From an uncultured Chryseobacterium sp. (GTDB lineage Bacteria; Bacteroidota; Bacteroidia; Flavobacteriales_F; PHOS-HE28), in the NCBI GenBank assembly GCA_964649165.1, contig CAZYPC010000001.1:31529-95528 (forward strand): a stretch of DNA of 64,000 nt, given 5' to 3'. Shown here piece after piece: positions 11,589 through 64,000 of the stretch. A program made the translations under genes and the position numbers. Each line of letters starts with the position of its first letter. Position 1 is the first letter of the stretch. The notes beneath the pieces were generated by a model. That model was not told where the DNA came from. It searched no databases and saw only the letters and a list, made by a program, of their open reading frames with translations.

Positions 11589-11607
11589 TGTATGCAGGCC
11601 TGCTCGC

Positions 11608-13566: not shown

Positions 13567-13667
13567 GCCACCTTGCCAGCTCCCGGATACCGCGGTGCCC
13601 GGCGCTGGGCGCCGTCGCGGTTTCGGGAACGGCAAGGAGCATCTTTACGTCCCCGCCACACAGCGGG

Positions 13668-14966: not shown

Positions 14967-15012
14967 TCTTCGCGATGGCGGGTCAAGCCCGCCATGACAA
15001 CCTTCACAGATC

Positions 15013-15429: not shown

Positions 15430-15508
15430 CGGCTCGCTTCGCTCGTGATTACCGATTGCTTCGCTTTGCTCGCAATTACTGGTCGCTGCGCTCTCGAAAC
15501 CCAAAGCA

Positions 15509-16189: not shown

Positions 16190-16310
16190 TTCATATCATC
16201 CGCAGATAGCGCAGATGACGCAGATGGGTCGCTGACGCGACCTATGCGCGCACCAGCCGGCCGTCCACTTCCGTCGCTGTGCCGCATCTTCACGGCCCCG
16301 ACACGTCGGG

Positions 16311-27311: not shown

Positions 27312-28187
27312 TCAGTTGTGCGAGCTCACCCGCTGCACGCCCAGCATATCGCCCATGCGGCACAAGGCCCCGCCAACGGCCGCGTATCCGGTAGCGGCCA
27401 CCGCCTTCAACGTGCTGTGCCGCTTCTTGAAGCTCCACACGTCCTTCAGGAACAGCGGGAAGTTGTGGTCGTTCAGCAGGTCGAACGCCACGGAGATCGT
27501 CGGCTCCAGGCTCTTGGCCGTGTGCCAGATGCCGAAGGGGATGAACAGCGTTTCGCCAGGGCCTACCACGAAGCGGATGGGCGTGGCGTTCCTGTACTTC
27601 GGGAACTTGGTCAGGTCCACATTCTCCAGATCCGGGATCTCGCTGATCCACGGGTCGCCCGGCTTGGGGTACATGTATTCGTCCTGCCCCCGCGGCCACA
27701 CCGTGAACTCTTTGTGGCCGTAAAGCTGGTTGACCCAGGCGCTCAAATGGTAGTAATCCACGTGCGCGTAAGGGAACTTGCCCCCCGTGCCGCCGATGAA
27801 CAATTCCAAGGCGCTGCCCCAGTAGCCGCGCTTGAACCAGGAGCTCTCCAGCCAGTTCGGCTTCGCGTAACCGAGGTTCACCGGCATCACCATGGGCAAG
27901 ACCTCCGGCAGGGTTGTCGGGATGTGGAATTTGCATGGGTAGGGCACCGGCCGGCTCGTGTCCTTGCCCTCCACCAGATCCAGGATCTCGGTCATGGTGT
28001 AGGTCACATCATTCACCTCGGTCTTGCGGTCGCCGTAGTTCTTGCGGAACCAGTCCGGCGTGAAGGTGTTGTACGCCCCCCACACCTTGGTGGCGTTCTT
28101 CAACACCAGCGGGATGCCCGGCTTCCAGTGTTTCTCGATGAACTCCTCGTGCGTGATCTCTGACGCGTCGACCTTGCGGACTTCCAT
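27312..28187 (-). CDS. Cupin-like / JmjC-domain protein
   Basis: LELFIGGTGGKFPYAHVDYYHLSAWVNQLYGHKEFTVWP ... GETLFIPFGIWHTAKSLEPTISVAF fits the H-x-D...H JmjC/cupin_8 pattern. Confidence 0.75.
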   Translation of the reverse strand: MEVRKVDASEITHEEFIEKHWKPGIPLVLKNATKVWGAYNTFTPDWFRKNYGDRKTEVNDVTYTMTEILDLVEGKDTSRPVPYPCKFHIPTTLPEVLPMVMPVNLGYAKPNWLESSWFKRGYWGSALELFIGGTGGKFPYAHVDYYHLSAWVNQLYGHKEFTVWPRGQDEYMYPKPGDPWISEIPDLENVDLTKFPKYRNATPIRFVVGPGETLFIPFGIWHTAKSLEPTISVAFDLLNDHNFPLFLKDVWSFKKRHSTLKAVAATGYAAVGGALCRMGDMLGVQRVSSHN

Positions 28188-28298
28188 GGCGATGATTGAG
28201 CACGCTGGAACGCGCGCTCCGAGGGGAAAGATACAGGCGCTCCCGAGGGGGTTCGCGCTGACGGAAGTCAGGCCATCAACGATCGGATGAGGATGCGA

Positions 28299-29831
28299 CT
28301 ATTCGATGATCAACTTGGCCCCGCTCAACCAGGTGCTGCCATGGGTGAGGTGAACGTAGTACGCACCGGCACCCAGCGAATGCACATCCAGTTCGTTCTG
28401 GCCCACCACCGCTTTTTGCACCAGCACCTCCTGACCTGTCGCATTTACCACTCGTATCCGCAGGTCGCCCGAGGATGACATCGACGAAGGCAAGGACACC
28501 GTGACCACCGCACTGCCACGCGTCGGATTGGGCGCCACGCTCAGCGCATCCTTCAAGTTCGTGACCTGCGAAGTGATCGCCGTACTGAAGTCATCGCACC
28601 CCGGCACCAAACAGCCCATGCTGTCGACCTTCACCACCCACAGGTCATGGTCGTACTGCGGTGGGTTGTTACCGCTCGCACTGTAGTTCACCCAGCCAAC
28701 GGCGATGAAGCCTCCATCATCCGTGGGCAGCACATCGCGGAAGCTCCCTTCACCGTCGTCCAACAAACTGTCCGCATAGAAGTAGTGTCGCATCCACAAA
28801 CTGTCCCCGTCCGAGTTTGCTCGGAGTAGTACTCCCTTGCGATCGCCATTCTCCTGGTAGCTCTGGCCGCAGGTGATCAGATCGCCGAAGGGTTCAACTT
28901 CCTTAACCGCGAAGAAGGTCGTGTTCACGGCTTCCGCGCCATACATGTGCGACCAGACCGTGTTGCCTGCGGCGCCAACCTTCACCATGCATAAAATACC
29001 ACCCAAACCCGCTTGTTGAGGGAACGCACTTGCGAAAACGCAACTTGAATCGGCCAAGGTCTCAATGTGAGCGTTCGGGGAATCACCAATTGAATCACCA
29101 TAGGTGCGTTCCCAAAGGAGTTCGCCTTGCGAATCCACACAAAACACCCACTGATCGCTTAGTCCGACATGATACGTCTTTTGTCCCCCGAGATAGTAGC
29201 CACCGTTCGGAGCCGAGCTCACCGAGACAATTGATTCAATCGTTTCCAGTTGTCCATATGTTTCGCTCCATTCAGTTTCACCCGCACTATCGACTTTCCA
29301 TAACAAAGCATCGCTGTAGACAGGATTTGCGATTTCTGCGGCAACAACAAAGCCATTATTTGATGATTGCTTGGCCTGATAGCCAATGCAAGTTCCAGCA
29401 GCCTCGTCGAATTCCGACAGAACGGCCACATTACCTCCGTCATCCACCACAATCAACACGGCTCGAATTGTCCCTGTTGTATCCGTCGTACTTCCACCGA
29501 GAACATAACCGCCCGCTTCGGTCCGGTCAGCAGTATTCGCCCAGCCCGGGTACACAACGGTCCATGGATATCCCAGTCGATGCTCAGCAATGGGAAATCC
29601 CTGTTCGTCCACTTCAATCGTGATGACAGATGAGCCGTAGTACAGGCTATCAGTCCAAGGGGCGTTACCTATACACAGGAAGTTCCCATTGGTCATTTTC
29701 TCGACGGCCCAGGCAACTTGCCACTCATGTTGGCCCAGTACATCATAGCGCCGCGAGAATTGCTGTGCTGGTGTGGCTGAGGAGCATACGCTCCCCAGCC
29801 ACACCAGCACAGCTATGCGCCAAGCGCCCAT
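28299..29831 (-). CDS. T9SS cargo protein, repeat-rich (propeller-like), function unknown
   Basis: Start reset to MGAWRIAVLVWLGSVCSSATPAQQ. C-terminal CTD LSVAPNPTRGSAVVTV...GAYYVHLTHGSTWLSGAKLIIE. Confidence 0.7.
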   Translation of the reverse strand: MGAWRIAVLVWLGSVCSSATPAQQFSRRYDVLGQHEWQVAWAVEKMTNGNFLCIGNAPWTDSLYYGSSVITIEVDEQGFPIAEHRLGYPWTVVYPGWANTADRTEAGGYVLGGSTTDTTGTIRAVLIVVDDGGNVAVLSEFDEAAGTCIGYQAKQSSNNGFVVAAEIANPVYSDALLWKVDSAGETEWSETYGQLETIESIVSVSSAPNGGYYLGGQKTYHVGLSDQWVFCVDSQGELLWERTYGDSIGDSPNAHIETLADSSCVFASAFPQQAGLGGILCMVKVGAAGNTVWSHMYGAEAVNTTFFAVKEVEPFGDLITCGQSYQENGDRKGVLLRANSDGDSLWMRHYFYADSLLDDGEGSFRDVLPTDDGGFIAVGWVNYSASGNNPPQYDHDLWVVKVDSMGCLVPGCDDFSTAITSQVTNLKDALSVAPNPTRGSAVVTVSLPSSMSSSGDLRIRVVNATGQEVLVQKAVVGQNELDVHSLGAGAYYVHLTHGSTWLSGAKLIIE

Positions 29832-29835
29832 GCGT

Positions 29836-32800
29836 TCAGCGTAGAACTTCGAATTTGGTATTGCCGGCATTAATGCCGTCAATGAAGAGCCCGGCAGTGT
29901 ACACACCAGCCGCCAGGTCCTTCTCCGGGATCTCGAACATGCCAACGCGCCCAGAGAACTGATTTTCCAGTATGATCCGACCGACTGGGTCCACCACGCG
30001 GATCACCGCCTGATCAGCGCCCTCTGGTAACTGTGCCACCAAGTAAACCGGCCCATTCGAGGGGTTCGGGTAAGCGGTGAGCAACGGTTCCATCACCGCA
30101 CTGGCGCGCTCCTTGGCTTGTGCGCTCCGGACCGGTCGCGGCAATACAACCTCCTCCGGCCATTCCTCGCCCAACATCATAAGCCACGCTTGCGCGGCGC
30201 CCGCACCACTGCCGTCCGTAGTTGCGAGCTGTTGCAAGGTGCCTACTCCGCCGGCGTCCAGGTCAGTGGCCTTCTGGTAATGCTCCAGCAGGTTCACGTA
30301 AAGATCCTGCACGATGAAGTAGTCCTCCAGGTCGCGGTCAAGCAGCCCGGCGTCCACTTCCGTGCGGGCCAGGTGCAGATCGCCCATGGCAAGCGCGAGT
30401 CCAAGACGATCCACGGCCGACGTACGCTTCGGATGGTCCGTGTGCAGTTGAAGCGCGCCACTCAGGGTGGCGCCTTGTCGGCCCAGGAGTGCCTTGGATG
30501 TGTAATCGCGCAGCGCATTCGCCTTGTTGCCGTAAGCGCGCGCCATGTCGCTCTCCATGAGGCTGAGCATGCTGATGCCGCCGCCTTGGGCATTGTTGAT
30601 CAGGGTCTTGTGGTAGTCCGTCAAGCCAGAGGATTCCACCAGCGCCAGCACTTCGGCCTGCAGCGGACTGTTGGCGATGAGGGCCTGCGCCACATGCCAA
30701 GGATTCATGGCGGGCACCCGGTTGATGGTTTCCTCCCACGCCCGGAGGGTGACGCGCGGTGCAACCAGCATCAAGTGATTGCGCACGTCGTAGCTGCTGT
30801 TGTGCGCGTCGCGGATATAGTCCAACAAACCGGCCGTGTTCCCGCCGTCCGCCCAGTCGTCATAGACCTCCCGCAACAGGGTGAACTCGGCCTCTGCCGC
30901 GGCCGCCGAGCCCACATCGGCCGTGGCAACCATGCCGCCACTCAGGTCAACCGGACAAACGAGGGGCTTGTCGTATTGATGAACTGTCGGCATGTACTGC
31001 GCCGCCTGATCGATCACCGCGCTCGCGCATTCAGGCACCACCCGCAGCGGAGTGCTCGCCGGATCGTGGTGATAGTAGTCGAACTGGTTCAGCCCGAATT
31101 CCACGTAGAGGTTCTGCTCGGAACTACCACCCAGACAGAGCGGTTCGAACGTGTTGCCACCGGGCGCTTTGTTGTCCGCATCACCGCCCTGCTGCTGCCC
31201 AATGGTCGCTTCGTCGGTAAAGGCGATGTCGTAGTCGTTGGCGGTGGTGCTACTGTAGTCGTTGCATTTGAAGTGCAGGCCGCCGAACTCGTCCGCGCCA
31301 TGGTTCTCCTTTTGGATGACGGTACCCGCGCTGTAGCCTGCGGTGCCGTTACCCGTGAAGCCATTGTAGCAGTTATTGTAGAACAGGTTGTTCTCGATGC
31401 CGGTCTTGCTGAAGATGCTGCCGGCCTTGGGCCAATCGCTACCGGTGGCGGTGAAGACGTTCTCCTCGAACTCGAAACCGGTGCAGGCGTACAGGGATGA
31501 GCCGTAGTTGTACTGAAGCCCGGTCACCGGATGGTCGGGGACGTTGACGGTATTCCGGGTGATGACCGAGTTGGAGGAGCCGGTCAAGTAGATGCTCAAT
31601 CCGCAGCCATTGAACACGCCTTCGTCGAGCTTGATCATCCGGCCTGCGGTCCAGGTGTGGTGCCGCACCGCGAGGTAGAGACCGGTGAAAGCGGGCACGG
31701 TGAGGGACACGGGGTCCCGCTCGATGACGGCCGTAGTATGAAAGGCGAAGAAGCCCATGCCCCATGTGAGGGCGTTGGCGGGATCGCTCTGGGCGGTGTT
31801 CTCAAACGAGCAGCCCCAGAGGGTCATGGGCCCGGCATCCTGGGCCACGACATGTGCTTTGGGGTTGAGGGTCGAGTAGTTCAAGGCGGCGTTGGTGCGG
31901 AAGGTACAACGGGTGTAGGTCTGCATGGCCCCAACGTCGAACGTGTGCGGTGCCCTGTAGACGTCCCACTTGTTGTTCTCGAAGACGGCATCGGTAAGGG
32001 TGATGTTGCCGCCGCCGCTTCCGTCATCCACGCTCGGGTTGACAGGATCCCCGTCCGAAGCGAGGATTCCGGTGAAGGCGTTGCTCACCTTCCCGCCGGA
32101 TTCCACAATCACACTCCCCGCGCCGGTACCGGTCCCATCACTGAGGACTTTCACGCCATCCCACATGCTGGTGGGGCAGCCGCTCACCGAGGTGAGGTGG
32201 GCGTTGTTGCGCATGAGCAAGGTGGCCCCCGGCATCACCTTCACGTTGGTTGGGAATGTGAACTGGCGACTGTCCGCGAAGCCGATGGTGGCCCCATCGA
32301 TGGTGAGGGTGAACCCCGGATCGATGACGAAGCTGCCCTTCACGTTCATGGTAGTGTTCCAAGTGGTGTTAGCGGTGATGTGGTACTCGCCGTTGGGATC
32401 GAGCGTGTACGGGGCATACGATGCGCGGGGATCGCAGGGGGAGAGTTTGGCGAGGTAAGCGTCGTCGAACGCATGGCCGGTATTCCCGCTGATCAGGATG
32501 CCGCCGTCACCCGAATCGCAGATCTTGAAGTTGCATTGCCGCTGGCGGATGTTGTCCGGGAAGCACACGGACACAGGACCTGCACCTGGCGCAACACCTG
32601 GGCCGTCACCATCGTCCCATTGATACTGCCAGAACTGGTCGCCGGTATTGGGGTCCAACTTGGTGCAGTAGCTATCCGTGCCCCAGTAGGAAAAGATGTC
32701 GTTGTTGGCAGGTGGTGCCGCATCCCAGTCGATAGGTTCGATCCCTGCGAGGTCACCCGGATCGGGATCATAGCTGTAGTTGTTCTGCAGGCAGGTCTGT

Positions 32801-49700: not shown

Positions 49701-50210
49701 GTCGAGTCCGCTTGCCACCTCGGTGAAGGATGCCAGGTCCGTGCTGCGGAGCACCAGACCATGGTCCCCCACCGCATGGATGCGGCTCTCGGCCGAATTC
49801 ACCGAAATGGCGTTCAGTGCGGACGGTGTGGGCCCCACGTGCAGGAAGGCATACGACTGGTCACTGATGTTCACCTTCAGGATGATCGCCCGCTGGTCCA
49901 CCGTGTCCGTGCCGGCGAAATAGGCGATGTCCTGCTCCGCCTCGCGTGCCGTAACCCCCGAGAAGCTCGTGTGATCGTACTGCGCATCATCCGCTGACGA
50001 ACCGGTGATCTCGAAGCGCGTCCAGGCATCCGTGCCAACCCCTGCGGTGGTGCTGAAGTAGATGCCATGCTCTCCACATACCACCACGTGCGTATCCCAC
50101 CAAAACACGCCCGTCAGATCATCGTCGATGCCCGAGGCGAGGTCCGTCCATTGGGCATGAGCTGGGCGCAGCAGGCCGAGTAATGCAAGTAGAAAGAACG
50201 GGCGCATCAT
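46737..50210 (-). CDS. Large T9SS cargo protein (propeller-like and PKD-like modules)
   Basis: Start reset to MMRPFFLLALLGLLRPAHAQ (ATGs at 50210 and 50207). CTD LSLGAYPNPFTGDLRLELPHKGTWRLTVLDALGRSV...RVVRVKD. ATGA-type overlap with the upstream gene's stop. Confidence 0.75.
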   Translation of the reverse strand: MMRPFFLLALLGLLRPAHAQWTDLASGIDDDLTGVFWWDTHVVVCGEHGIYFSTTAGVGTDAWTRFEITGSSADDAQYDHTSFSGVTAREAEQDIAYFAGTDTVDQRAIILKVNISDQSYAFLHVGPTPSALNAISVNSAESRIHAVGDHGLVLRSTDLASFTEVASGLDMPLLSLNSLSGTFLIGGDGVYVFCSDQTSGLTLTPHLSPGRTFRGIRARSSTQQYGVGGAVYRFSSSASPTDLTSFEPYPLDGRDIVMSVNSCWVATGHGMYKGGSNPGILEWQPSAGTGAIDDIQFDVDFVEGYAVGENGRVLYTADGGGNSMPFCGILSQGGCVGESTLASGTSSWSDNSCSWQLDGEPVAGSCSGNFSLVIDDVGVHQLMFTVSNGIYSDTAHLQIHIVDPPLVDLAVAVSDSILCKQGTTTITIAGTQTDVTYTCRDITHEEDLASATGNGGALQLNTAVIEGTADLVIEARNIYANCTRTLPDTIHIRVEETRARLHSDLVNALVGEGVGFYAHCDDAQHFVWDFGPTAEPPGSGLQDPEGISYGSPGPTEVTLICWSDAGCYDTLTSEGPFIFEEGAQDSCWTMMMVGNDPLWNGSGRACITDGHDTGDGFLVSGKSVENILLPSRQGRTVLLASGSSDFMAKYTYSGVLRWWVETLGEPVSTIAAISSQSNGNVLISGTDVVNRFLDNAGDTLPYFEYGNGYLMCLDARGRHQWHSCFYQASTSVIDVDSLDNVYVMGSLVNIGRYWYEGVEYFFNTEAVDHGTFLLRTSPIGVPIWQTYIASDYSNPVKCWDMDVDADGTISLGGDLEYGATFYSANDGPSYLAEPTEPDYGGHMYAARYDADGQFQWCLYAIDNDFGSQVVAVATAENGDLFITGNNDHYYTTQVSELHHSDGSVAEMTGYCGFFVAKLDASGHLAWGNGALFNCNSWTTGLDLTGDQLTAVSQFGGGGANGYISSISTPPLWCAASGGDLFMTVYNREGALQHVYVPWTTLPNAYGNVTSYRTPIFRDPEGTIMLLGEIRSTYGVSYWGDSLFTAEDEMWDGFISKPGLNCAQIPMPVQDAHDDQPLSLGAYPNPFTGDLRLELPHKGTWRLTVLDALGRSVCPPILTVVQELKLPSRLFNNSSGPLMVIAATGTERYSTRVVRVKD

Positions 50211-52297
50211 GGACGGTCCTGGATGATGAAGCGGAAGGTCCGGGCGGACATGCCCTGACTTGAAATGCTCAAGGTGTAAGGGCCGGGCGAGAGCGCACTG
50301 ATATCCATCGGGAACGCGGCGCGGCTGACCCGATGCAGGCAGGTGCGTCCCAAGGCATCTCTGACGATGACCTCTTCTTCGCCCTCGCGCGGCGTGGCCG
50401 ACAGGAGGAACAAGTGATCGCGCGCGGGCACGGGATACAGGGCCCATCCATCAATGCCTTGTTCCAGCATGCCGACGTAGACACTCATCGTCGCGCTGGT
50501 CCATATGCATCCGAAGCTGTCCGTGTAGGTCACTGCATAGCTGCCATCAGTCGCTGGCACGAAGGCGTTGCTGTCCGCGCCTACGATCGCAGCGCCATCA
50601 AGCGACCATTGATAATCGGTGTAGTCCGGAGAAACGCTCAGCACACCGCCGAGGAACGTCGGCACCTCCAGCGCCGGTATGCTCACCTGGAACGTGATGG
50701 TATCGATGCCGAAGTCGTTCGATACGATCAGCATGACCTGGTAGTCTCCGGTCGACGGAAAGCTGTGTGCGGGGTCCGCGCTGGTGTCCGCTGGACTGCC
50801 GTCATCGAAGTCCCAGAAATAGGTACCGGGTCGCACGCTCAGATCCTCGAACTGCACCGTGAGGTCCTGCGGGCAGTCGTGCGCGAACCAGGCGATGGGC
50901 GGCAGGTCCGCGTGGTTGAACTCATCCGCCCCGATATCCGGATACTCTGCATCACGCAGGTCGCCATCGATGTCGTCGACGGCCAGAGGCATGGGCACGG
51001 CCCCGAACTGGATGAGCGGATGCGCGGCGTGCAGGTCGTTCGCGTTATCCACGAAGTGGGGATCCACGCTCACGGAGGATGCCTCGAGCCCGGTGGCGTT
51101 CCGAAAGGTGTCCAGATCCGTGTACCAATCCCACGTGCTGTGTATCACCGCGAAGCCACCATCGCTGCGGTGGATGTCGTTGTGGTCGCTCGTAAGTCCC
51201 TGCGTATTGTAGTCCGTGTACAATACCACCGACGTATCGCTGTGCAGGATGTTGTTGCGCAGCACGATGGAGTTGACCTCGTTCAGCGCGACCGCACCGA
51301 AGAGCGAATTGTCGAAGACCCATACGTTCTCGGACTCCCGGAGGTAGACGCCCTCGAACGCCGTTGTGTGGAAGGTCCCGTTCTCGTTGGACATGGAGAC
51401 GTTCCGCGTGTATCCGCCGGAGATCATGTTGTTGTAGATCTGGACCGGCAGTGCGCTGTAGCCGATGGCGCGGTACGTTTCGATGCCGTGGTCGTACAGG
51501 CCGTACATCGTGTTGTGGTGCACGTAGGTGCGGTATATCTCCTCCTCCCATCCGTCCAAGTAGACGCCGATGCCGCTGTTCGTGATCCGGTTGTATCCGA
51601 TATCCAACGAATCGCCATAGATGATGCCCTGGATCCGGATCGCGACCTCGCAGGAATCGAAGCTGTTGTTCCAGATGATGTTGGGGCCCACATGGCGGTT
51701 CGACCCGCTACCGCCGAGTTCGATCGACGAGTAGACCATGGCGTTCTCCAGGTCGCGGAACTGGTTGTGGGTGAACGTGTGCGAATCGCCCTTGGCGACG
51801 GAAATGCCGTTGTGGAACCCGTCCGCCGGCAGGCCCTGGACGATGCAATGGTCGAACGTGATGCGATGACTGAAGGTGACCTCCAAACCCTTGTAGAGCC
51901 AACCGCTGCTCCCGCCCACCCGGGGGTAGATGGTCAGGTATTGAAAGGTGAGGTCGCTGCACTCATAGACCCCACTGAGCGTGGTGATCACGTCCTCGGC
52001 CTGTTCCGTTTCCGACTTGATCAGCACCGGATAGTACGGGGTGAGACCGCTGATGTAGACGGCGAGGTCGGTCGAATAGTCTCCGGGGCGGAGCAGGAAG
52101 GTCACTGGCGCGTTGCAACCGATGAGGTCCAGCGAGGTGATCGCCGCATCCAACGTCGGGTAGTCGGGCGCTGTGCCGCCCACCGTGTAACTCCCGTGCA
52201 ACTGCGCTTCGACTTCGGGACAGAAGCCGAGCGCCACCAGCACAAGCAGCAGTGTTGTCCGGGTCGACCGACGGGATGCGTTGGCCGGGATCTCCAT
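50207..52297 (-). CDS. Right-handed parallel beta-helix + PKD T9SS cargo protein
   Basis: Start reset to MEIPANASRRSTRTTLLLVLVALGFCPEVEAQ. Repeated beta-helix turns (NNSF..., NNMISGG..., NNILHSD...). PKD block YFWDFDDGSPADTSADPAHSFPSTGDYQVMLIVSN. CTD GWALYPVPARDHLFLL...GPYTLSISSQGMSARTFRFIIQD. Confidence 0.8.
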   Translation of the reverse strand: MEIPANASRRSTRTTLLLVLVALGFCPEVEAQLHGSYTVGGTAPDYPTLDAAITSLDLIGCNAPVTFLLRPGDYSTDLAVYISGLTPYYPVLIKSETEQAEDVITTLSGVYECSDLTFQYLTIYPRVGGSSGWLYKGLEVTFSHRITFDHCIVQGLPADGFHNGISVAKGDSHTFTHNQFRDLENAMVYSSIELGGSGSNRHVGPNIIWNNSFDSCEVAIRIQGIIYGDSLDIGYNRITNSGIGVYLDGWEEEIYRTYVHHNTMYGLYDHGIETYRAIGYSALPVQIYNNMISGGYTRNVSMSNENGTFHTTAFEGVYLRESENVWVFDNSLFGAVALNEVNSIVLRNNILHSDTSVVLYTDYNTQGLTSDHNDIHRSDGGFAVIHSTWDWYTDLDTFRNATGLEASSVSVDPHFVDNANDLHAAHPLIQFGAVPMPLAVDDIDGDLRDAEYPDIGADEFNHADLPPIAWFAHDCPQDLTVQFEDLSVRPGTYFWDFDDGSPADTSADPAHSFPSTGDYQVMLIVSNDFGIDTITFQVSIPALEVPTFLGGVLSVSPDYTDYQWSLDGAAIVGADSNAFVPATDGSYAVTYTDSFGCIWTSATMSVYVGMLEQGIDGWALYPVPARDHLFLLSATPREGEEEVIVRDALGRTCLHRVSRAAFPMDISALSPGPYTLSISSQGMSARTFRFIIQDRP

Positions 52298-52345
52298 GGT
52301 GGTTCGGGTGGGGCGGTGCGTAAAAGTGCGAAGGTCGCCGTCGGC

Positions 52346-56430: not shown

Positions 56431-57063
56431 TCAGCCTTCGTGTTTCGCCAGCGCTGGCACGATGATCAAGCCGGTGGCCACTTCGCCGAAGGCCACCACG
56501 GGCGCACCAGTGGCGGCCAGGTACGCGGTACGGGCGCAGAGCGCGGCGTCCACGCAATCGATGTTGGTGAGCTCCGACTGGTCGATCCCCAGCAGCTCGA
56601 GCAGCGCGCGGCGCTGCGCGCGTTTGCGCTTTGCATTGGCGTTGCCGCCGCGTAGGTGCCATGTGATGGCGTGCGGAAAGGTCTCGAAGCAATAGCGCTC
56701 CCGACCGGGTGCTGTGGGGTCGCGCACAGGATGCGTGGGCGCGAGCGCATCATACAGCGCCATGCCGTTCCGCATCCAATCGTAGTGCTTCTTGGGATGG
56801 GCAATGGCGCCGGCTTCCGTGGGCGAGGAGAAGCACCAGATGTGTTTCTGCATCAGCGCATGCTCGGCGGGCCGCCCCCGGCCCGTGGTGCTCCAGGCGC
56901 AGGGCGCGTCGATGGCGATCACGGCGGCATCCATCTCCTCCAGGCACCAACGCACCAGCGCGCTTATGTCCGTATCGGCCTTCTTCGCGCGGTAGCGGCC
57001 GCCCTCCAGCGCCACGGCGTGGAAGCCCTTGCTGCGGCCACCGACATCGATGCCGATGACCAT
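56431..57063 (-). CDS. DUF429 (RNase-H-like fold) protein
   Basis: Start reset to MVIGIDVGGRSKGFHAVAL... followed by AVIAIDAPCAW and DAALCARTAYL, the DUF429 layout as I recall it. Confidence 0.6.
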   Translation of the reverse strand: MVIGIDVGGRSKGFHAVALEGGRYRAKKADTDISALVRWCLEEMDAAVIAIDAPCAWSTTGRGRPAEHALMQKHIWCFSSPTEAGAIAHPKKHYDWMRNGMALYDALAPTHPVRDPTAPGRERYCFETFPHAITWHLRGGNANAKRKRAQRRALLELLGIDQSELTNIDCVDAALCARTAYLAATGAPVVAFGEVATGLIIVPALAKHEG

Positions 57064-57177
57064 GGGGGATGTGCGCGAAGTGGAAGTGAGCATGGTTCCT
57101 GGGCCGAAGATGTCCCACCTATTGGCAGATGCGTAGGACGATCGCTCCAAGGAGGGGTAAGTCCTTTTCGTGCAGGG

Positions 57178-59322
57178 CTAGCCGTTTTGCGATGGACGTA
57201 TGCCAAGCTCGTTCATCACCTCTTTCGCTGCGATCGTGCCTTGATCGTTCATCCGAAACTCCACGAACAGGCTTCGGAGATGCTTTGATACCTCGTTCAG
57301 GTCATCGCCCATCGTGAAGACCTTGGGGTCCCCCACGACAATGAGCTTTTGTTTGGCCCTGCTTATGGCCACATTCACCAAGCGCTCACCCGTGTTGCCC
57401 TTGTAGAGCTGACCGATGCGCCGCTCGCTGCTGTCCACCACATCCCAGACGATGACGTCGTATTCCGAGCCCTGAAAGGAGTGGATGGTGCCCACCTTGA
57501 TGCGTTCCAGGTCCTCCTTGGTGAGCATGCTGGCGTTGAGCAATGCCTGAATGCTCTGCACCTGTCCGTTGTACGGTGCAACTACACCGATGCTCACTGT
57601 TGCATGTGAGCGAACCAGACGTTGCACCAATGCTGCGACGAGTTCGGCCGAGGCAGTGTTGCGCCGCGAGCGGGTCTCCGTGACGGACACACGCGAACCA
57701 TCCTGCGGCCCGAAGTGGATGAAGTTGACCGGCCCCTCCGGAAGGAAATCGACATCGAGCAAGTGCAAGCCTTCACGCTCCACCTTGGAGGTGAGCCGAT
57801 GGTCATAGAATCGCTCGTTGATCAACGCACAGATCGCCTCGTCCATGCGGTGCTGCTCGTTGAGCATCACCAGCCCTTGTTCCTTATAGGCGGGCACGTC
57901 GGCGAGGTAGGTGAAGATGTCCGTGGCGAACCAATTGCGCGCGGCTTCGGTAGCGCTCACGCAGATGGGGCCTAGCTGTTTGAAGTCACCAGTGATCACC
58001 AGCTTGTCGCGGGTGAAGAGGCCCATGGCGATGGTCTGTACCAGCGGCATCATGCTCACTTCGTCGATGATGAGCACGTCGAACTGCTGCGGTTGGAACG
58101 CATCGCTCAGAAAGCACATGGCCGAGGTGGTGAGCGTGACGCTCGCCTCGCGCACGCGGGCCTCGTTCGCCTTCTTCAAGAGCTTGCGCAACTCCACCAC
58201 CTTGTCCTGTAGCTCGGCGCGCAACTCGGGCTTGTTTTCCGGTGCGCGCGCCAGAGCCGCTTGCGCCTTTCCTAGTTCGCGGCGCAGGGTGATGATGTGC
58301 TCCTTGTCCGGGAACAAGCGGTCGTCCTCGTTGATCTCGGCCATGGCCGGGTAGCCGAAGCGCAGCACCTTTCGCGCATCGAGCAACTCGCGCGTTTCGG
58401 GAATACGTTCCATTTCCTTCACCACCGCGCGTGTCAGGTGATCCACGGCGATGTTGGAGATGCCAGAGGCCAGCACCTTGCGCCCTTGTGCCGCTGCGCG
58501 CGCAATGATCTTGGCCAGCGTGAAGGTCTTGCCCGTTCCCGGCGGACCCCAGATGAAGGTCTGGTCCTGGCCGAAGACCCGTTCCATCACCGCCCGTTGC
58601 GGCTCGTTCACATCGGGATCCACGATGCTGACGGAGCCGTTGGATGCGCGCACAAGGTCCCGGCGTTCGAAGAGCCGAGCAGCCGCCGAGTCCGGGTGGT
58701 TGGGTATCTGCTCGAACTGCTGCTGGATGCGCCGGAGGAAATCGATGGGGTGCGTGCGGAAACGGAAGCGCGCGGCTATCTGCTCAGGTGATAGCGCAAC
58801 CTTCGCCCTGAAGATGATGATGGAAGTGCGGTTGTAGTAAGCCAACAACACTCCACTGGCGGCACCGGCCTCGGGTAACTCCGGCCACCAGAGGTCGATG
58901 GGCAGGCCTTCCTGCCCAGGTGCGGCCAAGCCATCAGGCAAGGAGATCACCGCCTCGTACATGTGGCCTGCCGTGTTCTCCTTGAGCAAGCGCAGCACCT
59001 TGGCCACGATCCAATTCTTGCGGTGGTCCTGCTCCACGGCGGTCTTCTCGTCGTGGAAGGCCTTGCGCACTTCTTCCTCGGGCAAACTGCTCAGGTCGAA
59101 GCTGCTGGGGAAGTCGCGCGTGAGCTTGCGCCAATCCGGCCGACGCAGGTGGCTACCGATGGGTTTGAAGTAATCGTTGTAGTCCTCCAGGCATTGCGCC
59201 ACTACTTCACCATCCAGGTGGTCGCGATGCAGCAGGTTCTTCAGCTGCACGGCCGTGTAGTCCCGCTCCCGATGGTCGAGCTCGTACCACTTCTGGATGA
59301 TCTTGTGGAAGAGGACCTGCAT
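57178..59322 (-). CDS. Upf1-like superfamily-1 helicase (AAA_11/AAA_12 type) with unknown 270-aa N-terminal domain
   Basis: Helicase motifs present: NEPQRAV (Q), WGPPGTGKTF (I), LIIDEVSMM (II), VITGDFKQLGP (III), TIHSFQGSEYDVIV (V), NVAISRAKQKLIVVGD (VI). Confidence 0.85.
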   Translation of the reverse strand: MQVLFHKIIQKWYELDHRERDYTAVQLKNLLHRDHLDGEVVAQCLEDYNDYFKPIGSHLRRPDWRKLTRDFPSSFDLSSLPEEEVRKAFHDEKTAVEQDHRKNWIVAKVLRLLKENTAGHMYEAVISLPDGLAAPGQEGLPIDLWWPELPEAGAASGVLLAYYNRTSIIIFRAKVALSPEQIAARFRFRTHPIDFLRRIQQQFEQIPNHPDSAAARLFERRDLVRASNGSVSIVDPDVNEPQRAVMERVFGQDQTFIWGPPGTGKTFTLAKIIARAAAQGRKVLASGISNIAVDHLTRAVVKEMERIPETRELLDARKVLRFGYPAMAEINEDDRLFPDKEHIITLRRELGKAQAALARAPENKPELRAELQDKVVELRKLLKKANEARVREASVTLTTSAMCFLSDAFQPQQFDVLIIDEVSMMPLVQTIAMGLFTRDKLVITGDFKQLGPICVSATEAARNWFATDIFTYLADVPAYKEQGLVMLNEQHRMDEAICALINERFYDHRLTSKVEREGLHLLDVDFLPEGPVNFIHFGPQDGSRVSVTETRSRRNTASAELVAALVQRLVRSHATVSIGVVAPYNGQVQSIQALLNASMLTKEDLERIKVGTIHSFQGSEYDVIVWDVVDSSERRIGQLYKGNTGERLVNVAISRAKQKLIVVGDPKVFTMGDDLNEVSKHLRSLFVEFRMNDQGTIAAKEVMNELGIRPSQNG

Positions 59323-59357
59323 CCTGGTGTTGCGCTATTCCATCGGGGTAGGTCGGT

Positions 59358-59810
59358 TCAGAACTCGAACAACTCCATAAGGTCCGTCACGACCTGCAGA
59401 TCCGCCTTCTTGACCATACACTTGCCGGGATGCTCCTTGCGGGGCGCCCGAGCCAAAGCGCGTACCCGGCCTTCGCGAGAAAGCGCGCGGTAGGTGATGG
59501 TGGGTGGCTCGGCTGTGTAATCCACTTGCGCCACCACCACCTGGCTGCGCTTCTGCAACAGCGCCTTGTGCACATCCCAGGCATCGGTAGAGCCGCCGTA
59601 GGCCTTGAGCTGCATCAAGAGGAACTCATCACGGTCATCGAGACCCAGGATGATGTCGAAGCCATAGAGGTCTATGTCCGAACGGCCGATGAGCGGGGTC
59701 TTGCCACGCCGGGTGACAGCCAGGATGAAATCGCGGATGAACCACGACTCCACCAAACTCTCTTGGATCGTGGAACGCGAGGGGTCCTGGAAATAGGTCT
59801 TGAGCGACAT
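59358..59810 (-). CDS. Hypothetical 150-aa protein, possible restriction-endonuclease-fold (D...D...QxK)
   Basis: ESLVESWFIRDF...GRSDIDLYGFDIILGLDDRDEFLLMQLKAY resembles a PD-(D/E)xK core with Q in place of D/E. Its stop is 35 nt upstream of the helicase ATG. The fold assignment is an inference. Confidence 0.5.
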   Translation of the reverse strand: MSLKTYFQDPSRSTIQESLVESWFIRDFILAVTRRGKTPLIGRSDIDLYGFDIILGLDDRDEFLLMQLKAYGGSTDAWDVHKALLQKRSQVVVAQVDYTAEPPTITYRALSREGRVRALARAPRKEHPGKCMVKKADLQVVTDLMELFEF

Positions 59811-59870
59811 TGGTTTGGTGCTCGTTCAACAGGTGTACACCGGGCGTTGGATGGACATGCAAGCTCCCTT

Positions 59871-60683
59871 CTAATTGGAATTGTACCCGTGCTCCCTGCT
59901 GCGCAGAAGGTTCTTCCAATGACTTTCGCGCGCACCGATCTGCTCGTCCGAAGCTCGCGAATCGGCGATCTCCAGTATCGAGAACTGGAAGTTGGTCAAA
60001 TACTCCGGTGGGTGTGCCCCGAGCAACTCTCGCAATTCCTTGTTGCCGCCGTGACCGGTCCAGACATAGGTGCACCACCGCTGCCACAAGCCGCTTTCGC
60101 CATCGGCCTTGCCCACGTAGTGCTTGCCGTTCAGCATGTCGGTGATCAGGTAGACCCCCTTCACGTTGCTCAATGCAGACTTCCAGCTTGCTACTTCCTG
60201 CTCCACGATCGTCTTCAGCTTGGGGTAAGGGACCGTTGTCCAGTTGAACCCTGGAAATTCCTCAATGGTCAGCTTCTTCTCGCGGATCTCGCTCAGTGTG
60301 AACGCGCTGCCGTCCTCGTGCCCCCAGAGGTAAGCCGCGCGTCCACCGCGTTCGTGGTGGACGACCAAACGGCCGATCCACATCTCGTGGCCGGTAACCA
60401 GTTCGGTCTTGTAGCGATACAGCTTCTTTTCCTCCAGCCAATCGTGGCCAAGCACCTTGTACACCCCAGCGAACAGCCACTTGTTCCGCTCTGGCAGCTT
60501 GATCAAGCTCACGATATGGTTGCACGGCCAGTTGCGTTGCCGCTGCCACTCCTGCCACTCCTGGAACCAGCCCGCGAAGAATGCGTCCAGTGGTGGGTCT
60601 ATGTCCGACGTGGCCAAGTGAAGCTTGTAGTTCTTCAGGTCCAACGGAACCTGATTGGCAAGCAGGAAGTCAACGAGCTTCAT
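59871..60683 (-). CDS. GIY-YIG nuclease with uncharacterised 170-aa N-terminal domain
   Basis: C-terminal VKGVYLITDMLNGKHYVGKADGESGLWQRW...FQFSILEIAD...ARESHWKNLL matches GIY...YVG...R...E...N of the GIY-YIG fold. Confidence 0.8.
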   Translation of the reverse strand: MKLVDFLLANQVPLDLKNYKLHLATSDIDPPLDAFFAGWFQEWQEWQRQRNWPCNHIVSLIKLPERNKWLFAGVYKVLGHDWLEEKKLYRYKTELVTGHEMWIGRLVVHHERGGRAAYLWGHEDGSAFTLSEIREKKLTIEEFPGFNWTTVPYPKLKTIVEQEVASWKSALSNVKGVYLITDMLNGKHYVGKADGESGLWQRWCTYVWTGHGGNKELRELLGAHPPEYLTNFQFSILEIADSRASDEQIGARESHWKNLLRSREHGYNSN

Positions 60684-60741
60684 TGTCGCAGCATATCAGT
60701 TGGACTGCACAGCGTGTTGGGACGATCCGATCAGCAGCAGG

Positions 60742-61698
60742 CTAGTCGGAAATGGGCTCCAGACCGATCAACAGGAAACTCACTTTCCCCGTATCCTCGG
60801 TTTCGTCCGGTGTCTCAACGATCTCTTGAATGGTCGCGCGCACACGCTGATTCCAATGGACCGCAACCAACTTCTGCACCACTTCTTCGGCAATGTCACC
60901 AATGATCGGCTCGCCTCCCGTTCGCAACTCGAACCTCTTCTTGGACGTGCTGCCCCCTACAAGTTCCCCCTCAATGACCCGGGGTTCCTTCGGTTTGAGA
61001 ACGATCGTATCGAGCCACGCCTTACGGTCTCGCGCCTGTGCAGCTTTCAAACGAACTCCGGCGCGACGGGTCTGCGTCCGCATGACGATCTGCGCATTGT
61101 TGTCGCCTATCTCTTCAACGAGCTTCTTGTAATGGCTCTTGATGCGCGAAGAGGTCTTGAAGATGGAAAGCAGGTCGTCCGTGGTGCCCTCGGGATCAAG
61201 CAAACGACCGAGCACCGCCATCACTTCATTCGGGTCGTAGGCCCGCACACGTTGAAGCTCCTCACTCGTTGCGAAGCGGAACTTGATGCCAAAAGAAGAG
61301 TCGAACCCACCAGCAATGAGCAGACGACTCTCCTCCAATACGATGTTCGGTACAGCGGCACGCGGCGTGGGCTTGCCGAATGATTGGGTAATAGCGTCCA
61401 CAAGGGACTGGGTCGTTGCCAATACGCGACCAAGAAAGCCTGCCTGGATATCGTGGCCCACCACCGGGTCGCCGTCCAAACTGAACACCACATCGCTATT
61501 CTCCAGTTCATAAGCGATCGATGTCTCGAGCTCTGCCTCCAGGTCTTTCAAGTGGCCCTGCCATGCATCCCATTGCAACTGGGCGGCGAAATCATCCTTG
61601 AGTGCAGAGCCTTCATTCGGAAGCGTTGCTTTGAACTGCTCCAACTGGGCCTCCACCTCGGATGAGGGCCGCGGTATGTGAAGCTCTTCAGTGCGCAT
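60742..61698 (-). CDS. Hypothetical 318-aa protein
   Basis: An uninterrupted ORF. Its ATG (61698) lies 11 nt inside the upstream ORF (stop at 61688). No recognisable motif. Confidence 0.6.
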   Translation of the reverse strand: MRTEELHIPRPSSEVEAQLEQFKATLPNEGSALKDDFAAQLQWDAWQGHLKDLEAELETSIAYELENSDVVFSLDGDPVVGHDIQAGFLGRVLATTQSLVDAITQSFGKPTPRAAVPNIVLEESRLLIAGGFDSSFGIKFRFATSEELQRVRAYDPNEVMAVLGRLLDPEGTTDDLLSIFKTSSRIKSHYKKLVEEIGDNNAQIVMRTQTRRAGVRLKAAQARDRKAWLDTIVLKPKEPRVIEGELVGGSTSKKRFELRTGGEPIIGDIAEEVVQKLVAVHWNQRVRATIQEIVETPDETEDTGKVSFLLIGLEPISD

Positions 61699-62242
61699 GG
61701 CTCAGAACAGGACACAAGTTAGGGTCGCCGATACGCATCTCGACCAGTCCCTTCCGGCCCCTGTGCGGGGCTTCCGGTTTGCCGGGGCGGGAATAGTCGC
61801 GGGCGCTTGAGAACCACTGCCGCCAATAGGCACGCAACTTCTCGGTTTGACTTTCCCATGCATGTCCTACGGGGAATACCACCACTAAGAACGTGTGGCA
61901 GGAGTATTTCGCCTTCGTGCTCTCCCGGCCATTCATCAACGCCCCTGCGTTCACTTGTTGCGGAACGGTAAGAGAGTTCAGTTCGGTAGCATGGCTGAAG
62001 TTGGCCAGGTCGATATCCTCGGGGTTCGTTCGTGTCGCGTCCACAAAAGACCCATCGACCCATTGGGTCACGTTCAGGCCAAGCGCGGCAATGTCGGCTT
62101 GATAGTCCTGTAGGCCCTTGAATATGCTGGCTCTCGTCGTTGACGTGGATCCATCCACACAACGCTCGTGGAGGTCATTGGCGTCCCCGGCATGCACTCC
62201 ATCCGGAAGGAGGCCTTGGGCATTGAAATCTGGGAGTGGCAT
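61688..62242 (-). CDS. Minimal nucleotidyltransferase-like protein (MNT/DUF6932-like)
   Basis: MPLPDFNAQGLLPDGVH... N-terminus and WVDGSFVDATRTNPEDIDLANF (G-S ... D-x-D) resemble the pol-beta-type minimal NTase family recalled as DUF6932. It starts 18 nt after the methyltransferase stop. Confidence 0.5.
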   Translation of the reverse strand: MPLPDFNAQGLLPDGVHAGDANDLHERCVDGSTSTTRASIFKGLQDYQADIAALGLNVTQWVDGSFVDATRTNPEDIDLANFSHATELNSLTVPQQVNAGALMNGRESTKAKYSCHTFLVVVFPVGHAWESQTEKLRAYWRQWFSSARDYSRPGKPEAPHRGRKGLVEMRIGDPNLCPVLSHAH

Positions 62243-62260
62243 GCGGCTCTTTGTCTTGCG

Positions 62261-64000
62261 TCAAGATAGGTCGGTTTCGGACTCCTTCACGACCGCCTTC
62301 CTCTTCCCACTCCCCTCCACTATAGCTATCTCCTCCTCCGTAAGCCCATACAGCCCATACACCACCTGGTCTATCTCCTGCTCCACCGCCAAGGCCGCAG
62401 GCCCAGCCTCCATCCCCAGCCGCTTCTTGACCAACCGGACTAGTTTGGAGTCACGCGCCGCATTTGGCTTCGGAAGTGGCAACTGAGCAACAGATCTGGC
62501 TTGAATCTCACTGAACACCTTCTTTGTTGACTTAAGGAAGGTCGAGTAGTAGTAGTTCCACAGCTTCGAATTGAACAAGGCTAGAACCCATTCTGGTTGG
62601 CGTTCGACATCCTCATTCAAGTTGATCGCCACTAGGGTGTTCAGGGCATAGTACTGCTGTTCGTCGATGGCAGCCATTAGACTGGATGACACCCTGCGGA
62701 AGAAAATCTTCTTCGCGGAAAGAAAGATGTCCTCTCGCTTACAACTATGAATCGCCTCTACATCGTAGCGCAGGTAGTTTCCTGCCCACGAGATGCCGTA
62801 ACGATGAACCTCACGACCATCAAGCACGGGCTTGTAGTTCTTACCCTTCGCCTTCTCAAAGAGATGTGCTGCGCGATCACCCTTAAGTGCTATGGCTTGA
62901 TTGATTGAGCTTATCTCACCAAGCGTGCCCGAAGAACGGTCGTCGATTGATTTCTTAAGGTCCCGACCAGCGCTGTCCTGCAACACAGAGAATCGCAGTA
63001 GGTCGTCGTTGGCGAATTCACTTCTGGGTGTCGTGGTGGTCGTCCATTGGTAGTCGCCGGAGAATGCCGTGACCTTTAGCGATTCGGTTGGCTCTTTGAC
63101 TCGCTCGAGGAATAAGGACACGGTTTCCACAACGGCATCTTCAAATGGGAGCTTTTCATACGTCACTATTTCAGAGACTTGGGTGTGCTCCAGAATGAAC
63201 TTGCGTAGCTGGTGATAATACTCTTGCGTGAGGATTGTGTTGGGAACGATATATGACAGCACTCCTCCGGTGGCAAGCAGACGAGCACCACTCTCGATGA
63301 AGAAACCGAACGTGTTCATCCTACCCATGGACGAACTATAGTTGGCAAGCAGGTACTTCCGCTGTGCGCTGTCGAACCAGTCATACATCGCCAGTTGAAC
63401 GTACGGTGGATTGCCAATAACCACGCTAAATCCGCTACTGAGCCCATACATCCACTCCGGATCGAAGAAGGGCGCGCTGGCGTTCTGGTCGTAGGGGTCC
63501 CAAGCGGCCAGCATGCGTGCGGTCTTGGGCTGTAGCTCATGGTCCTGCACCAGCAGCTCGGCCAGTTGTTCGCGCAGCACCTTGTCCTGCTGGCGGCACT
63601 TCTCCTTGCGCTGCGGGGTGCGCGCCTCGAAGTAGTCATGCCGCACGCGCTTCAGCTGCGTCTTCTTCTGCTCGATGGCCGGGTTGGTGAACAGGTTGTC
63701 GTGTTCCTTCTCCAATTTCATGAGCGTATTGGCCGCCACGAACTTGGTCTCCAAATTGGGCAGGGCGCGCACGCCGCGGTTGGGCCGCGCGTCTGCCACG
63801 CGCTGGTCCACCACCAAGCTGATGAAGAAGCGCAATTTGGCGATCTGCATGGCGATGGGCTGGATGTCCACGCCGTAGATGCCGTTCTCGATCAGGTAGA
63901 GCTTGCGGCCGTAGTCCAGCGCATTGTGCTCAAAGGCATCCTCGATGTCGGCGACGGTGCGCTCTCGGATATCGGCATCGTCCAACTGTGCGGCCTTTTC
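62261..64000 (-). CDS. Eco57I/PglX-like N6-adenine DNA methyltransferase (COG1002 type), N-terminus outside window
   Basis: The frame stays open to base 64000; the listed M at 63985 is a TTG. YGVDIQPIAMQIAKLRFFISLVVDQ, catalytic VIGNPPYVQL, a TaqI-like C-terminal specificity region, and the typical tail VVYGLYGLTEEEIAIVEG. Confidence 0.85.
   Translation of the reverse strand, partial: EKAAQLDDADIRERTVADIEDAFEHNALDYGRKLYLIENGIYGVDIQPIAMQIAKLRFFISLVVDQRVADARPNRGVRALPNLETKFVAANTLMKLEKEHDNLFTNPAIEQKKTQLKRVRHDYFEARTPQRKEKCRQQDKVLREQLAELLVQDHELQPKTARMLAAWDPYDQNASAPFFDPEWMYGLSSGFSVVIGNPPYVQLAMYDWFDSAQRKYLLANYSSSMGRMNTFGFFIESGARLLATGGVLSYIVPNTILTQEYYHQLRKFILEHTQVSEIVTYEKLPFEDAVVETVSLFLERVKEPTESLKVTAFSGDYQWTTTTTPRSEFANDDLLRFSVLQDSAGRDLKKSIDDRSSGTLGEISSINQAIALKGDRAAHLFEKAKGKNYKPVLDGREVHRYGISWAGNYLRYDVEAIHSCKREDIFLSAKKIFFRRVSSSLMAAIDEQQYYALNTLVAINLNEDVERQPEWVLALFNSKLWNYYYSTFLKSTKKVFSEIQARSVAQLPLPKPNAARDSKLVRLVKKRLGMEAGPAALAVEQEIDQVVYGLYGLTEEEIAIVEGSGKRKAVVKESETDLS

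Follow-up and report, generated by a model that had tools for sequence, protein, structure and literature searches.

The subject of this work is a gene cluster at the end of a 64,000-nucleotide (nt) stretch of DNA (here called the window) from contig CAZYPC010000001.1 of an uncultured Chryseobacterium sp. ORF calling over window positions 56431 to 64000 gave seven open reading frames (ORFs), all of them co-directional on the minus strand, just as a preliminary description of the sequence had listed them. The cluster encodes, in gene order, the C-terminal part of a DNA methyltransferase, a nucleotidyltransferase (NTase)-like protein with a 318-amino-acid (aa) partner, a GIY-YIG nuclease of the UzuA family, a small protein that we call g5, a Upf1-like superfamily 1 (SF1) helicase, and a DUF429 protein (Table 1). 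Spacings between consecutive genes are +18, -11 (an overlap), +58, +60, +35, and +27 nt, the last of which becomes +114 nt if the DUF429 gene starts at 57063, as gene callers place it on identical contigs. The measured range agrees with the earlier estimate of an 11-nt overlap to about 115 nt.

Table 1. Genes and features of the cluster, in gene order (window coordinates)
Feature	Position	Strand	Basis or remark
Methyltransferase, C-terminal ~579 aa	62261-64000+	minus	ORF continues past the window end
Conserved methyltransferase 3'-terminal segment	62296-62349	minus	Orphan second copy in L011
DUF6932 NTase-like protein, 184 aa	61688-62242	minus	ORF and Pfam/PADLOC
NTase partner, 318 aa	60742-61698	minus	ORF; divergent PDC-M63B-like
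UzuA, 270 aa	59871-60683	minus	PADLOC UzuA and GIY-YIG motif
g5, 150 aa	59358-59810	minus	ORF; PD-(D/E)xK fold by model
Upf1-like SF1B helicase, 714 aa	57178-59322	minus	AAA_11/AAA_12
DUF429 protein, 239 aa as longest ORF	56431-57150	minus	Pfam; likely start 57063 (210 aa)

The composition of the cluster is layered. GC content is 0.49 to 0.58 over 60 to 63.2 kb and 0.49 to 0.61 over the whole cluster, compared with 0.65 to 0.69 in the flank at 52 to 57 kb. Part of the cluster is therefore AT-richer, as had been noted before, though the dip is modest against a window mean of 0.614. GC content at third codon positions (GC3) separates the genes into three groups: methyltransferase, NTase, and 318-aa partner at 0.66 to 0.70; UzuA, g5, and helicase at 0.79 to 0.80; and the DUF429 gene together with the flanking genes at 0.82 to 0.86. 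Because GC3 forms three strata, the genes may have separate acquisition histories.

The domain identities that the preliminary description had read from the sequence alone all survived profile and structure searches. The Eco57I/PglX-like m6A methyltransferase matches Eco57I and TaqI_C and contains an NPPY motif, and the minimal NTase-like protein matches DUF6932 and contains a GS...DxD motif. The GIY-YIG nuclease with an unassigned N-terminal domain is recognized by the UzuA profile as well as by its motif, and the 150-aa protein resembling a PD-(D/E)xK fold recovers that fold by AlphaFold2 and Foldseek and conserves an acidic/lysine motif. The DUF429 RNase-H-like protein matches PF04250 (E value, 2e-24). 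Finally, the SF1 helicase has the Upf1-like core expected of it, but the N-terminal region ahead of that core, put at 270 aa, measures about 237 aa.

The same description had taken the seven genes for a defense cluster of new combination and possibly one undescribed system. The first half of that view stands, as the cluster appears to be horizontally acquired and is not canonical BREX, DISARM, or Mokosh, nor, as far as profiles show, Nhi. The second half does not: searches of PADLOC, Pfam, NCBIfam, and PHROGs place the genes in separate, mostly catalogued units (five of the seven fall into catalogued systems or candidates), and no other locus was found with the seven-gene order. Because the tools split the locus and the combination is not conserved, we conclude that the seven genes are probably a mosaic defense island of separately mobile modules and not one system. 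A single integrated system, in which the methyltransferase marks self while the NTase, nucleases, and helicase act as sensor and effector, is very improbable. The genes are indeed co-directional and tightly spaced, all seven encode nucleic-acid-related domains, and the whole block is intact on four further contigs (L001 to L004), though these contigs encode identical protein sequences. No second genome has the combination, however. Among the comparison loci (L numbers; several are metagenome-assembled genomes [MAGs] or metagenome contigs), the four inner genes are exchanged in L011, from which the DUF429 gene is also missing, and L025 shares only g5 and the helicase. Moreover, UzuA and PDC-M63AB, the catalogued counterpart of the NTase pair, occur alone elsewhere, and the GC3 groups cut across the block. 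Of the co-localization with Upf1-like helicases that had been considered for the 150-aa, 318-aa, and GIY-YIG proteins, the g5 part was found, in L025, but the three inspected UzuA homologs stand alone and the layout of the 318-aa protein recurs with the NTase. Thus, tight co-directional packing of defense-type domains does not prove one system.

The methyltransferase fragment (NPPY at its residue 197) matches Eco57I (2.6e-31) and TaqI_C (5e-23) in Pfam and REase_MTase_IIG (9e-43) and MTase_II (2e-39) in PADLOC. The BREX PglX model NF033452 scores 60 bits against a cutoff of 500, further BREX MTaseX models score more weakly, and the match to DrmMI is 2e-10. Homologs are numerous, and many are type IIG-like proteins of 940 to 1000 aa with HSDR_N. 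The methyltransferase of L011 (1179 aa) is identical to the window gene at 78% of nucleotides and 81% of amino acids. No nuclease domain of the kind fused to type IIG enzymes was found at its N terminus, where the only match is a weak one to DUF4391 (residues 65 to 184; E, 0.005; below the Pfam cutoff). A separate ORF of L016 matches DUF4391 at a similarly subthreshold level (E, 0.0007), and L023 and L024 have small ORFs without a family match in the same place.

An HKD(PLD)-SNF2 helicase gene precedes the methyltransferase in L011, L016, L017, L023, and L024, and the PLD-SNF2 proteins of these relatives match the "HKD+Snf2" and DrmD models. Because relatives carry this gene upstream, the window methyltransferase most likely belongs to a SNF2/methyltransferase restriction-modification (RM)-like system, the partner genes of which would lie beyond position 64000. 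The arrangement resembles the HKD-SNF2 plus N6-adenine methyltransferase RM-like systems (Type-2 "BREX-related" systems, NAR 2026, PMC12839542; DrmD/DrmMI of class 1 DISARM; type IIG enzymes) in its Eco57I/MmeI-like gamma-class methyltransferase with a TaqI_C recognition domain. It also resembles them in that the methyltransferase of the relatives is preceded by a PLD-SNF2 fusion and followed by defense genes. It differs from the Type-2 BREX-related systems in that limited searches of the relatives gave neither a DUF499 ATPase nor DUF3780. BREX PglZ and BrxC are absent from the six genes downstream of the methyltransferase, and L011, L016, and L023 carry the SNF2-PLD gene upstream instead. DISARM DrmA and DrmB (DUF1998) were found neither in the window cluster nor in the 10-kb flanks of the relatives, and matches to the DrmA model fell only in the SNF2 helicase region.

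We note two peculiarities of these relatives. In L017 (positions 5900 to 9900), a Flavobacteriales MAG, the reading frames of the HKD-SNF2 gene and of the methyltransferase's N-terminal part shift several times when compared with L016 and L011, either because these are pseudogenes or because the MAG is misassembled. In L024, a Saprospiraceae MAG, three tandem 80-aa GIY-YIG ORFs lie at positions 16871 to 17833 on the minus strand, near the HKD-SNF2/methyltransferase locus.

The methyltransferase may itself be composite. Window positions 63399 to 64000 are 89.5% identical in nucleotides to L017:11051-11652, and the likeness ends at the recognition domain. The recognition domain of the window gene (62411 to 63430) instead resembles those of L011 (81% of amino acids) and L013 (70%), not that of L017. 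Because the catalytic part is L017-like and the recognition domain is L011/L013-like, the comparison suggests that specificity domains have been swapped. As a separate observation, Logan contigs of this sequence that were assembled independently (L001 to L004) stop at about 62408 and about 63633 of the window, either within the methyltransferase gene or where it ends, and may have met strain-level alternative paths there; none of the contigs of identical sequence (L001 to L005) reaches past the methyltransferase gene, some stopping before it.

What follows the methyltransferase varies. In the HKD-SNF2/methyltransferase loci, the downstream cargo is co-directional and of defense type and differs from locus to locus, with Mrr, with AIPR, TIR, and AAA, or with an ABC ATPase. 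L013, which is without the SNF2 gene, has AbiU2, TIR, and GmrSD after the methyltransferase, and in L016 defense genes also interrupt the HKD-SNF2/methyltransferase system. Replacement of cargo is most direct in L011, a Flavobacteriales MAG that holds the sole close relative of the helicase among GTDB species representatives. By blastn, DNA homology between the window and L011 is confined to 63988-62297 (78%) and 59322-57265 (74.6%), and there is no synteny outside the methyltransferase and the helicase. The four window genes between those two are replaced in L011 by four other defense genes, namely, PDC-S26 (PDDEXK_4), PDC-S19 (DUF3644 plus an EC042_2821 restriction endonuclease-like domain), NsnA (GmrSD_N plus HNH), and HEPN-AbiU2. 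In L011, HEPN-AbiU2 might have been swapped in as an effector of the helicase; a divergent AbiU2-family gene (23% identity) in L013 also follows the methyltransferase, in a locus without the helicase.

The exchange seems to have left a trace. L011 contains an orphan 53-bp copy of the 3' end of the methyltransferase gene, located 142 bp downstream of the true gene end. In blastn, the 3' end of the window gene (62349-62296) matches the orphan copy (L011 5013-5066) at 87%. Within L011, the direct repeat formed by 4871-4923 and 5013-5065 has 74% identity; that is, the orphan is less like its own gene than like the window allele. We read the orphan copy as a recombination scar of cassette exchange that marks, on the proximal side, the junction with the variable cargo. 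Judged by these alignments, the 3' flank of the methyltransferase gene appears to be a cargo site, with different defense cargo in every relative examined.

Mosaic islands and cargo exchange beside or inside multigene systems are already known phenomena. Defense genes embedded in or appended to such systems have been exploited for discovery as "guilt by embedding" (Payne et al. 2024), and an insertion hotspot has been described in hmaABC (PMC11232893). The present loci are similar in that conserved system genes flank variable, co-directional defense cassettes and several cargo genes match embedded-gene models. They differ in that the window cargo lies downstream of the methyltransferase and not demonstrably between two core genes. 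Moreover, the embedded-gene survey covered Hma, BREX, and DISARM as well as type I RM, and the host system of the window is none of these. The window and L011 offer a natural example of cassette exchange beside an RM-like methyltransferase in high-GC Flavobacteriales MAGs, complete with a putative recombination scar, and cargo sites like this support guilt-by-embedding discovery outside model phyla.

The first cargo unit is the NTase pair. The 184-aa protein matches DUF6932 (PF22014, 3.9e-27), PDC-M63A (PDLC04744, 3.1e-22), and phrog_9194 (3e-21), and a GS-x10-DID motif of the NTase GS...DxD type lies at residue 64. A literature search returned no paper mentioning DUF6932. The 318-aa protein has no match in Pfam or the PDB; it matches phrog_18731 (3e-7) and, in part, PDC-M63B (PDLC04748; E, 0.0034; residues 226 to 304). 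The same layout, in which the stop of an A gene (157 to 184 aa) overlaps the start of a B gene (310 to 318 aa), occurs on a Klebsiella plasmid within a lambda-like prophage region, where the genes are bona fide PDC-M63A (2e-41) and B (4e-47), and also on a Bradyrhizobium plasmid. By BLASTP, the window 318-aa protein matches the Klebsiella and Bradyrhizobium B proteins at only 0.003 and 0.016. The pair thus resembles PDC-M63 (Payne et al. 2024 preprint) in having a DUF6932 protein followed by an overlapping partner of about 310 aa, with order, sizes, and overlap in agreement. It is unlike PDC-M63 in that the B protein is highly divergent, and PDC-M63 is itself only a candidate system. Conservation of the layout supports the NTase and its partner as a PDC-M63AB-like recurrent subunit that is already catalogued as a candidate.

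The second cargo unit is UzuA. PADLOC matches the 270-aa protein to UzuA (PDLC03973, 3.2e-62) over profile positions 42 to 278 of 278, and phrog_26160 matches it over the full length (1.5e-55). The protein combines a family-specific N-terminal domain with a C-terminal GIY-YIG nuclease domain, for which the Pfam match is below the cutoff (7e-4), the structural match is to the I-TevI catalytic domain (0.009 in the PDB), and the motif is GVY-x10-YVG at residue 176. Uzume is a single-gene GIY-YIG system (bioRxiv 10.1101/2024.10.26.620412). UzuA homologs were found in 431 plasmid records, and the three that were inspected are all stand-alone genes with unrelated neighbors. By its UzuA profile, its GIY-YIG motif, and its single-gene organization, the window gene can be classed as Uzume, which reportedly originates from the Millman et al. 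2022 set. The profile match is near full length, and the GIY-YIG domain is C-terminal as in that system. The window copy differs in being embedded in a larger island of a Flavobacteriales-like host, and its architecture is otherwise the same.

The helicase matches AAA_11 (1.4e-26) and AAA_12 (1.5e-35) in Pfam, and its core (residues 236 to 673) matches structures of Upf1, IGHMBP2, and DNA2 (6e-27). Both Walker motifs are intact, A as GPPGTGKT at residue 259 and B as DEVS at residue 420. Likeness to L025 (89% of amino acids) and L011 (77%) extends over the full length, including the N-terminal region. That region (residues 1 to 240) has no Pfam domain and gave only noise in a PDB profile search, and its single-sequence AlphaFold2 model (predicted local distance difference test [pLDDT], 40) is too low for a fold search. 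A metagenome scan with the helicase returned just two distant, core-only fragments, and a scan of viral contigs returned none. On plasmids, tblastn matches were limited to the core and extended into the N-terminal region by no more than its last ~65 residues.

Two side observations concern the helicase. For window 58603-59322, which encodes residues 1 to 240, a word-indexed search came back empty and missed even the parent protein, although Logan contigs carry the full-length call; the empty result may be a limitation of the index rather than biology. Moreover, L033:3191-5416 and L034:3518-5743 encode 741-aa Upf1-like helicases with a window-like layout, that is, an unassigned N-terminal region followed by the core. 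These helicases stand alone, on a Halalkalicoccus plasmid beside DUF262-HNH and restriction-endonuclease genes and on a Cytobacillus plasmid beside a reverse transcriptase, and they may represent an unrecognized single-gene defense family.

The g5 protein has no match in Pfam, PADLOC, NCBIfam, or PHROG, and none among PDB sequences even with a 32-sequence profile. An AlphaFold2 model built from six homologs (pLDDT, 85; predicted template modeling score, 0.81) retrieved only PD-(D/E)xK nucleases as its top 20 PDB matches in Foldseek, among them the SPARDA nuclease subunit, Hjc, and EcoRV. The match probabilities are 0.98 to 0.99, but E values near 1e-3 are marginal and TM scores are 0.35 to 0.5. 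A search of BFVD with the model gave the same kind of matches. Within the family, D47, G50, and K69 are invariant and E17, E21, D52, and Q67 are nearly so, giving the pattern E17/E21...D47-x-FG-x-D52...Q67-x-K69, and distant members show weak matches to PDDEXK_5. On the strength of the modeled fold and this pattern, g5 is a small, stand-alone PD-(D/E)xK-fold protein and a predicted nuclease. The family is sparse. Scanning 1.84 billion representatives in full with HMMER yielded 69 clusters (50% identity), a word-index protein search found only seven homologs, and the plasmid, phage, and viral-contig collections held none.

Next to the helicase, g5 is part of a conserved block. Window 59812-57247 aligns to L025 in one continuous stretch of 2,569 nt at 81.8% identity, which begins at the ATG of g5 and ends ~70 nt before the helicase stop; the genes on either side differ. 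The two g5 proteins share 84% of amino acids, and g5 is separated from the helicase by 35 nt in the window and by 1 nt in L025. Conservation supports g5 plus helicase as a recurrent subunit, new here and without a catalogue entry. The pair would have escaped cataloguing because PADLOC has no g5 model and because its A+B definition would not call Mokosh without MkoB.

The g5 family has other partners. In L006 and L010, a g5 homolog and a 191-aa protein form a cassette that is 87.8% identical in nucleotides over exactly those two genes and lies downstream of large MmeI-like methyltransferases. The window has no homolog of the 191-aa protein. The idea that the 191-aa partner corresponds to the helicase N-terminal region was rejected, since BLASTP found no similarity. 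In L027, a g5 homolog precedes a 238-aa protein (821-1537) that matches the C-terminal domain of PDC-S68 (1.5e-16). As a side note, the core of the window helicase also weakly matches PDC-S68 models. The L006 locus (positions 4498 to 17086 of an 86-kb JGI contig) is itself a second defense island, with a type IIG enzyme (1404 aa, MmeI-like), a protein of metallo-beta-lactamase fold, the g5 homolog and its 191-aa neighbor, Mrr_cat, and a canonical Mokosh type I pair, in which MkoA (3.5e-123) has an N-terminal protein-kinase domain and MkoB matches at 6e-23.

How g5 and the helicase might act together can be framed by known helicase-nuclease systems. Like Mokosh types I and II, the window pairs a Upf1-like (COG1112-type) SF1 helicase core with an adjoining nuclease gene. 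Unlike MkoA, however, the window helicase falls short of full length, as the MkoA profile (2.7e-60) covers only the C-terminal half (positions 616 to 1082 of 1112). Moreover, the putative nuclease here is g5, with 150 aa and a PD-(D/E)xK instead of a PLD fold, and its gene lies upstream. No MkoB/PLDc match was found in the seven proteins, and the MkoC match covers the helicase part only (positions 768 to 952 of 1136). Nhi gave no profile match for the helicase, the N-terminal 237 aa of which has no detectable domain. Hachiman consists of HamA, a PD-(D/E)xK-like nuclease, and HamB, a helicase, and Gabija is likewise a functional analog. The likeness to Hachiman and Gabija, a small restriction-endonuclease-fold protein encoded beside a helicase, is one of analogy only. 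The window helicase is SF1B and Upf1-like and does not belong to SF2, and g5, which is roughly half as large as HamA, matches neither DUF1837 nor the Hachiman and Gabija nucleases of PADLOC.

We tentatively propose, while rating the chance as below even, that g5 and the helicase (57178-59810) constitute a two-gene anti-phage system in which the nuclease would be licensed through the helicase N-terminal region. The g5 family would then be a portable effector or adaptor with alternative partners, including this helicase, the 191-aa protein, and the PDC-S68 C-terminal-like protein. A second possibility, which we also hold with some doubt, is that the two are mere neighbors, such that the helicase would defend on its own, as a single gene, and g5 would either act separately as a small nuclease or be what is left of a g5 plus 191-aa cassette after loss of the partner. 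In L011 the helicase indeed occurs without g5, elsewhere helicases of comparable length are monocistronic, and g5 homologs are joined to a 191-aa protein, which the window lacks, in a discrete cassette. Chance proximity does not sit easily, however, with g5 and the helicase traveling as one DNA block in two contexts with a gap as short as 1 nt, nor with their shared GC3 (0.79 and 0.80), and the retention of all family-invariant residues indicates that g5 is not decaying. If active, the g5-helicase pair would enrich the defense catalogue by a compact module of nuclease and helicase and by a new family of small PD-(D/E)xK proteins.

The DUF429 gene appears to lie outside these modules. Besides PF04250, it matches PDC-S44 (PDLC05019, 9e-15), over profile positions 9 to 158 of 259 only. 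Its GC content (0.67) and GC3 (0.83) are like those of the flanking genes, and it is absent from the vicinity of the helicase in L011 and L025. Because of this host-like composition and this absence, the gene is treated here as the island edge or a resident gene and not as a helicase partner. The same two observations ruled it out as the nuclease partner of the helicase. DUF429 belongs to the RNase H-like superfamily, and its conserved genomic context in close taxa argues against mobility (Majorek et al. 2014, PMC3985635). Alternatively, the gene may be a separate single-gene candidate, PDC-S44.

We envision that the modules of the mosaic would act independently. The methyltransferase would mark host DNA at a motif read by the TaqI_C-type recognition domain, and a SNF2 translocase-PLD nuclease would cut unmarked DNA, with a DUF4391-like element either in a position between the two genes or fused to the methyltransferase. 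Co-directional defense cassettes would be exchanged by recombination at the 3' flank of the methyltransferase gene. Among the cargo, the DUF6932 NTase, translationally coupled to its 318-aa partner, might form a toxin/antitoxin-like or nucleotide-modifying abortive module, and the UzuA GIY-YIG nuclease would cleave phage DNA. Finally, the Upf1-like helicase, presumed to be a 5'-3' SF1B enzyme, might load on phage replication or transcription intermediates and deliver or license the g5 nuclease. The proposal of a helicase-guided nuclease is made because of the analogy with Mokosh, Hachiman, and Gabija.

Several observations weigh against a mosaic composed in this way. The SNF2 partner is extrapolated from relatives at 78 to 90% nucleotide identity while the window ends inside the methyltransferase, and one such relative, L017, has frameshifted gene copies. 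The 318-aa protein matches PDC-M63B only weakly (0.0034), and deletion of PDC-M63AB in its native host, E. coli NILS69, gave no detectable defense (bioRxiv 10.1101/2024.12.20.629700). The link between g5 and the helicase is seen in two independent contexts only, L011 keeps the helicase without g5, and relatives of g5 pair with the 191-aa protein (L006 and L010) or the 238-aa protein (L027) instead. Finally, the methyltransferase and the helicase are both kept in two genomes without flanking synteny, such that the helicase could belong to the methyltransferase system.

That last point bears on a further alternative, in which the methyltransferase and the Upf1-like helicase are the core of one host system (HKD-SNF2, methyltransferase, and SF1 helicase), with the helicase as a bookend and the cargo embedded between. 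The window and L011 do keep both genes (81% and 77% of amino acids) while all else differs, homology between the two loci resumes exactly at the helicase ATG, and inner genes match embedded-gene models (PDC-M63, PDC-S26, and PDC-S19). Such a pairing, however, is seen in two loci only, and distant helicases of ~740 aa stand alone on haloarchaeal and Cytobacillus plasmids. Because four loci with related methyltransferases (L013, L016, L023, and L024) lack an SF1 helicase downstream and the 1.4 kb of available L025 contig upstream of g5 contains no methyltransferase, we consider a bookend helicase unlikely and favor separate modules.

GC-rich neighbors of the cluster had been described as type IX secretion system cargo, an identity that is borne out only in part: one of them, a PKD protein at 50207-52300, has a subthreshold match to Por_Secre_tail (4e-4). 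An adjacent 281-aa protein has no Pfam match, and the remaining two flank neighbors match RCC1 and LRR. Scans of the region for tRNAs and Rfam families returned none, and scans for sigma-70 promoters and terminators, with models not suited to Bacteroidota, returned matches at the level of shuffled sequence. Elsewhere in the window, a second GC dip, to 0.56 against the window mean of 0.61, occurs at about 28000 to 30000.

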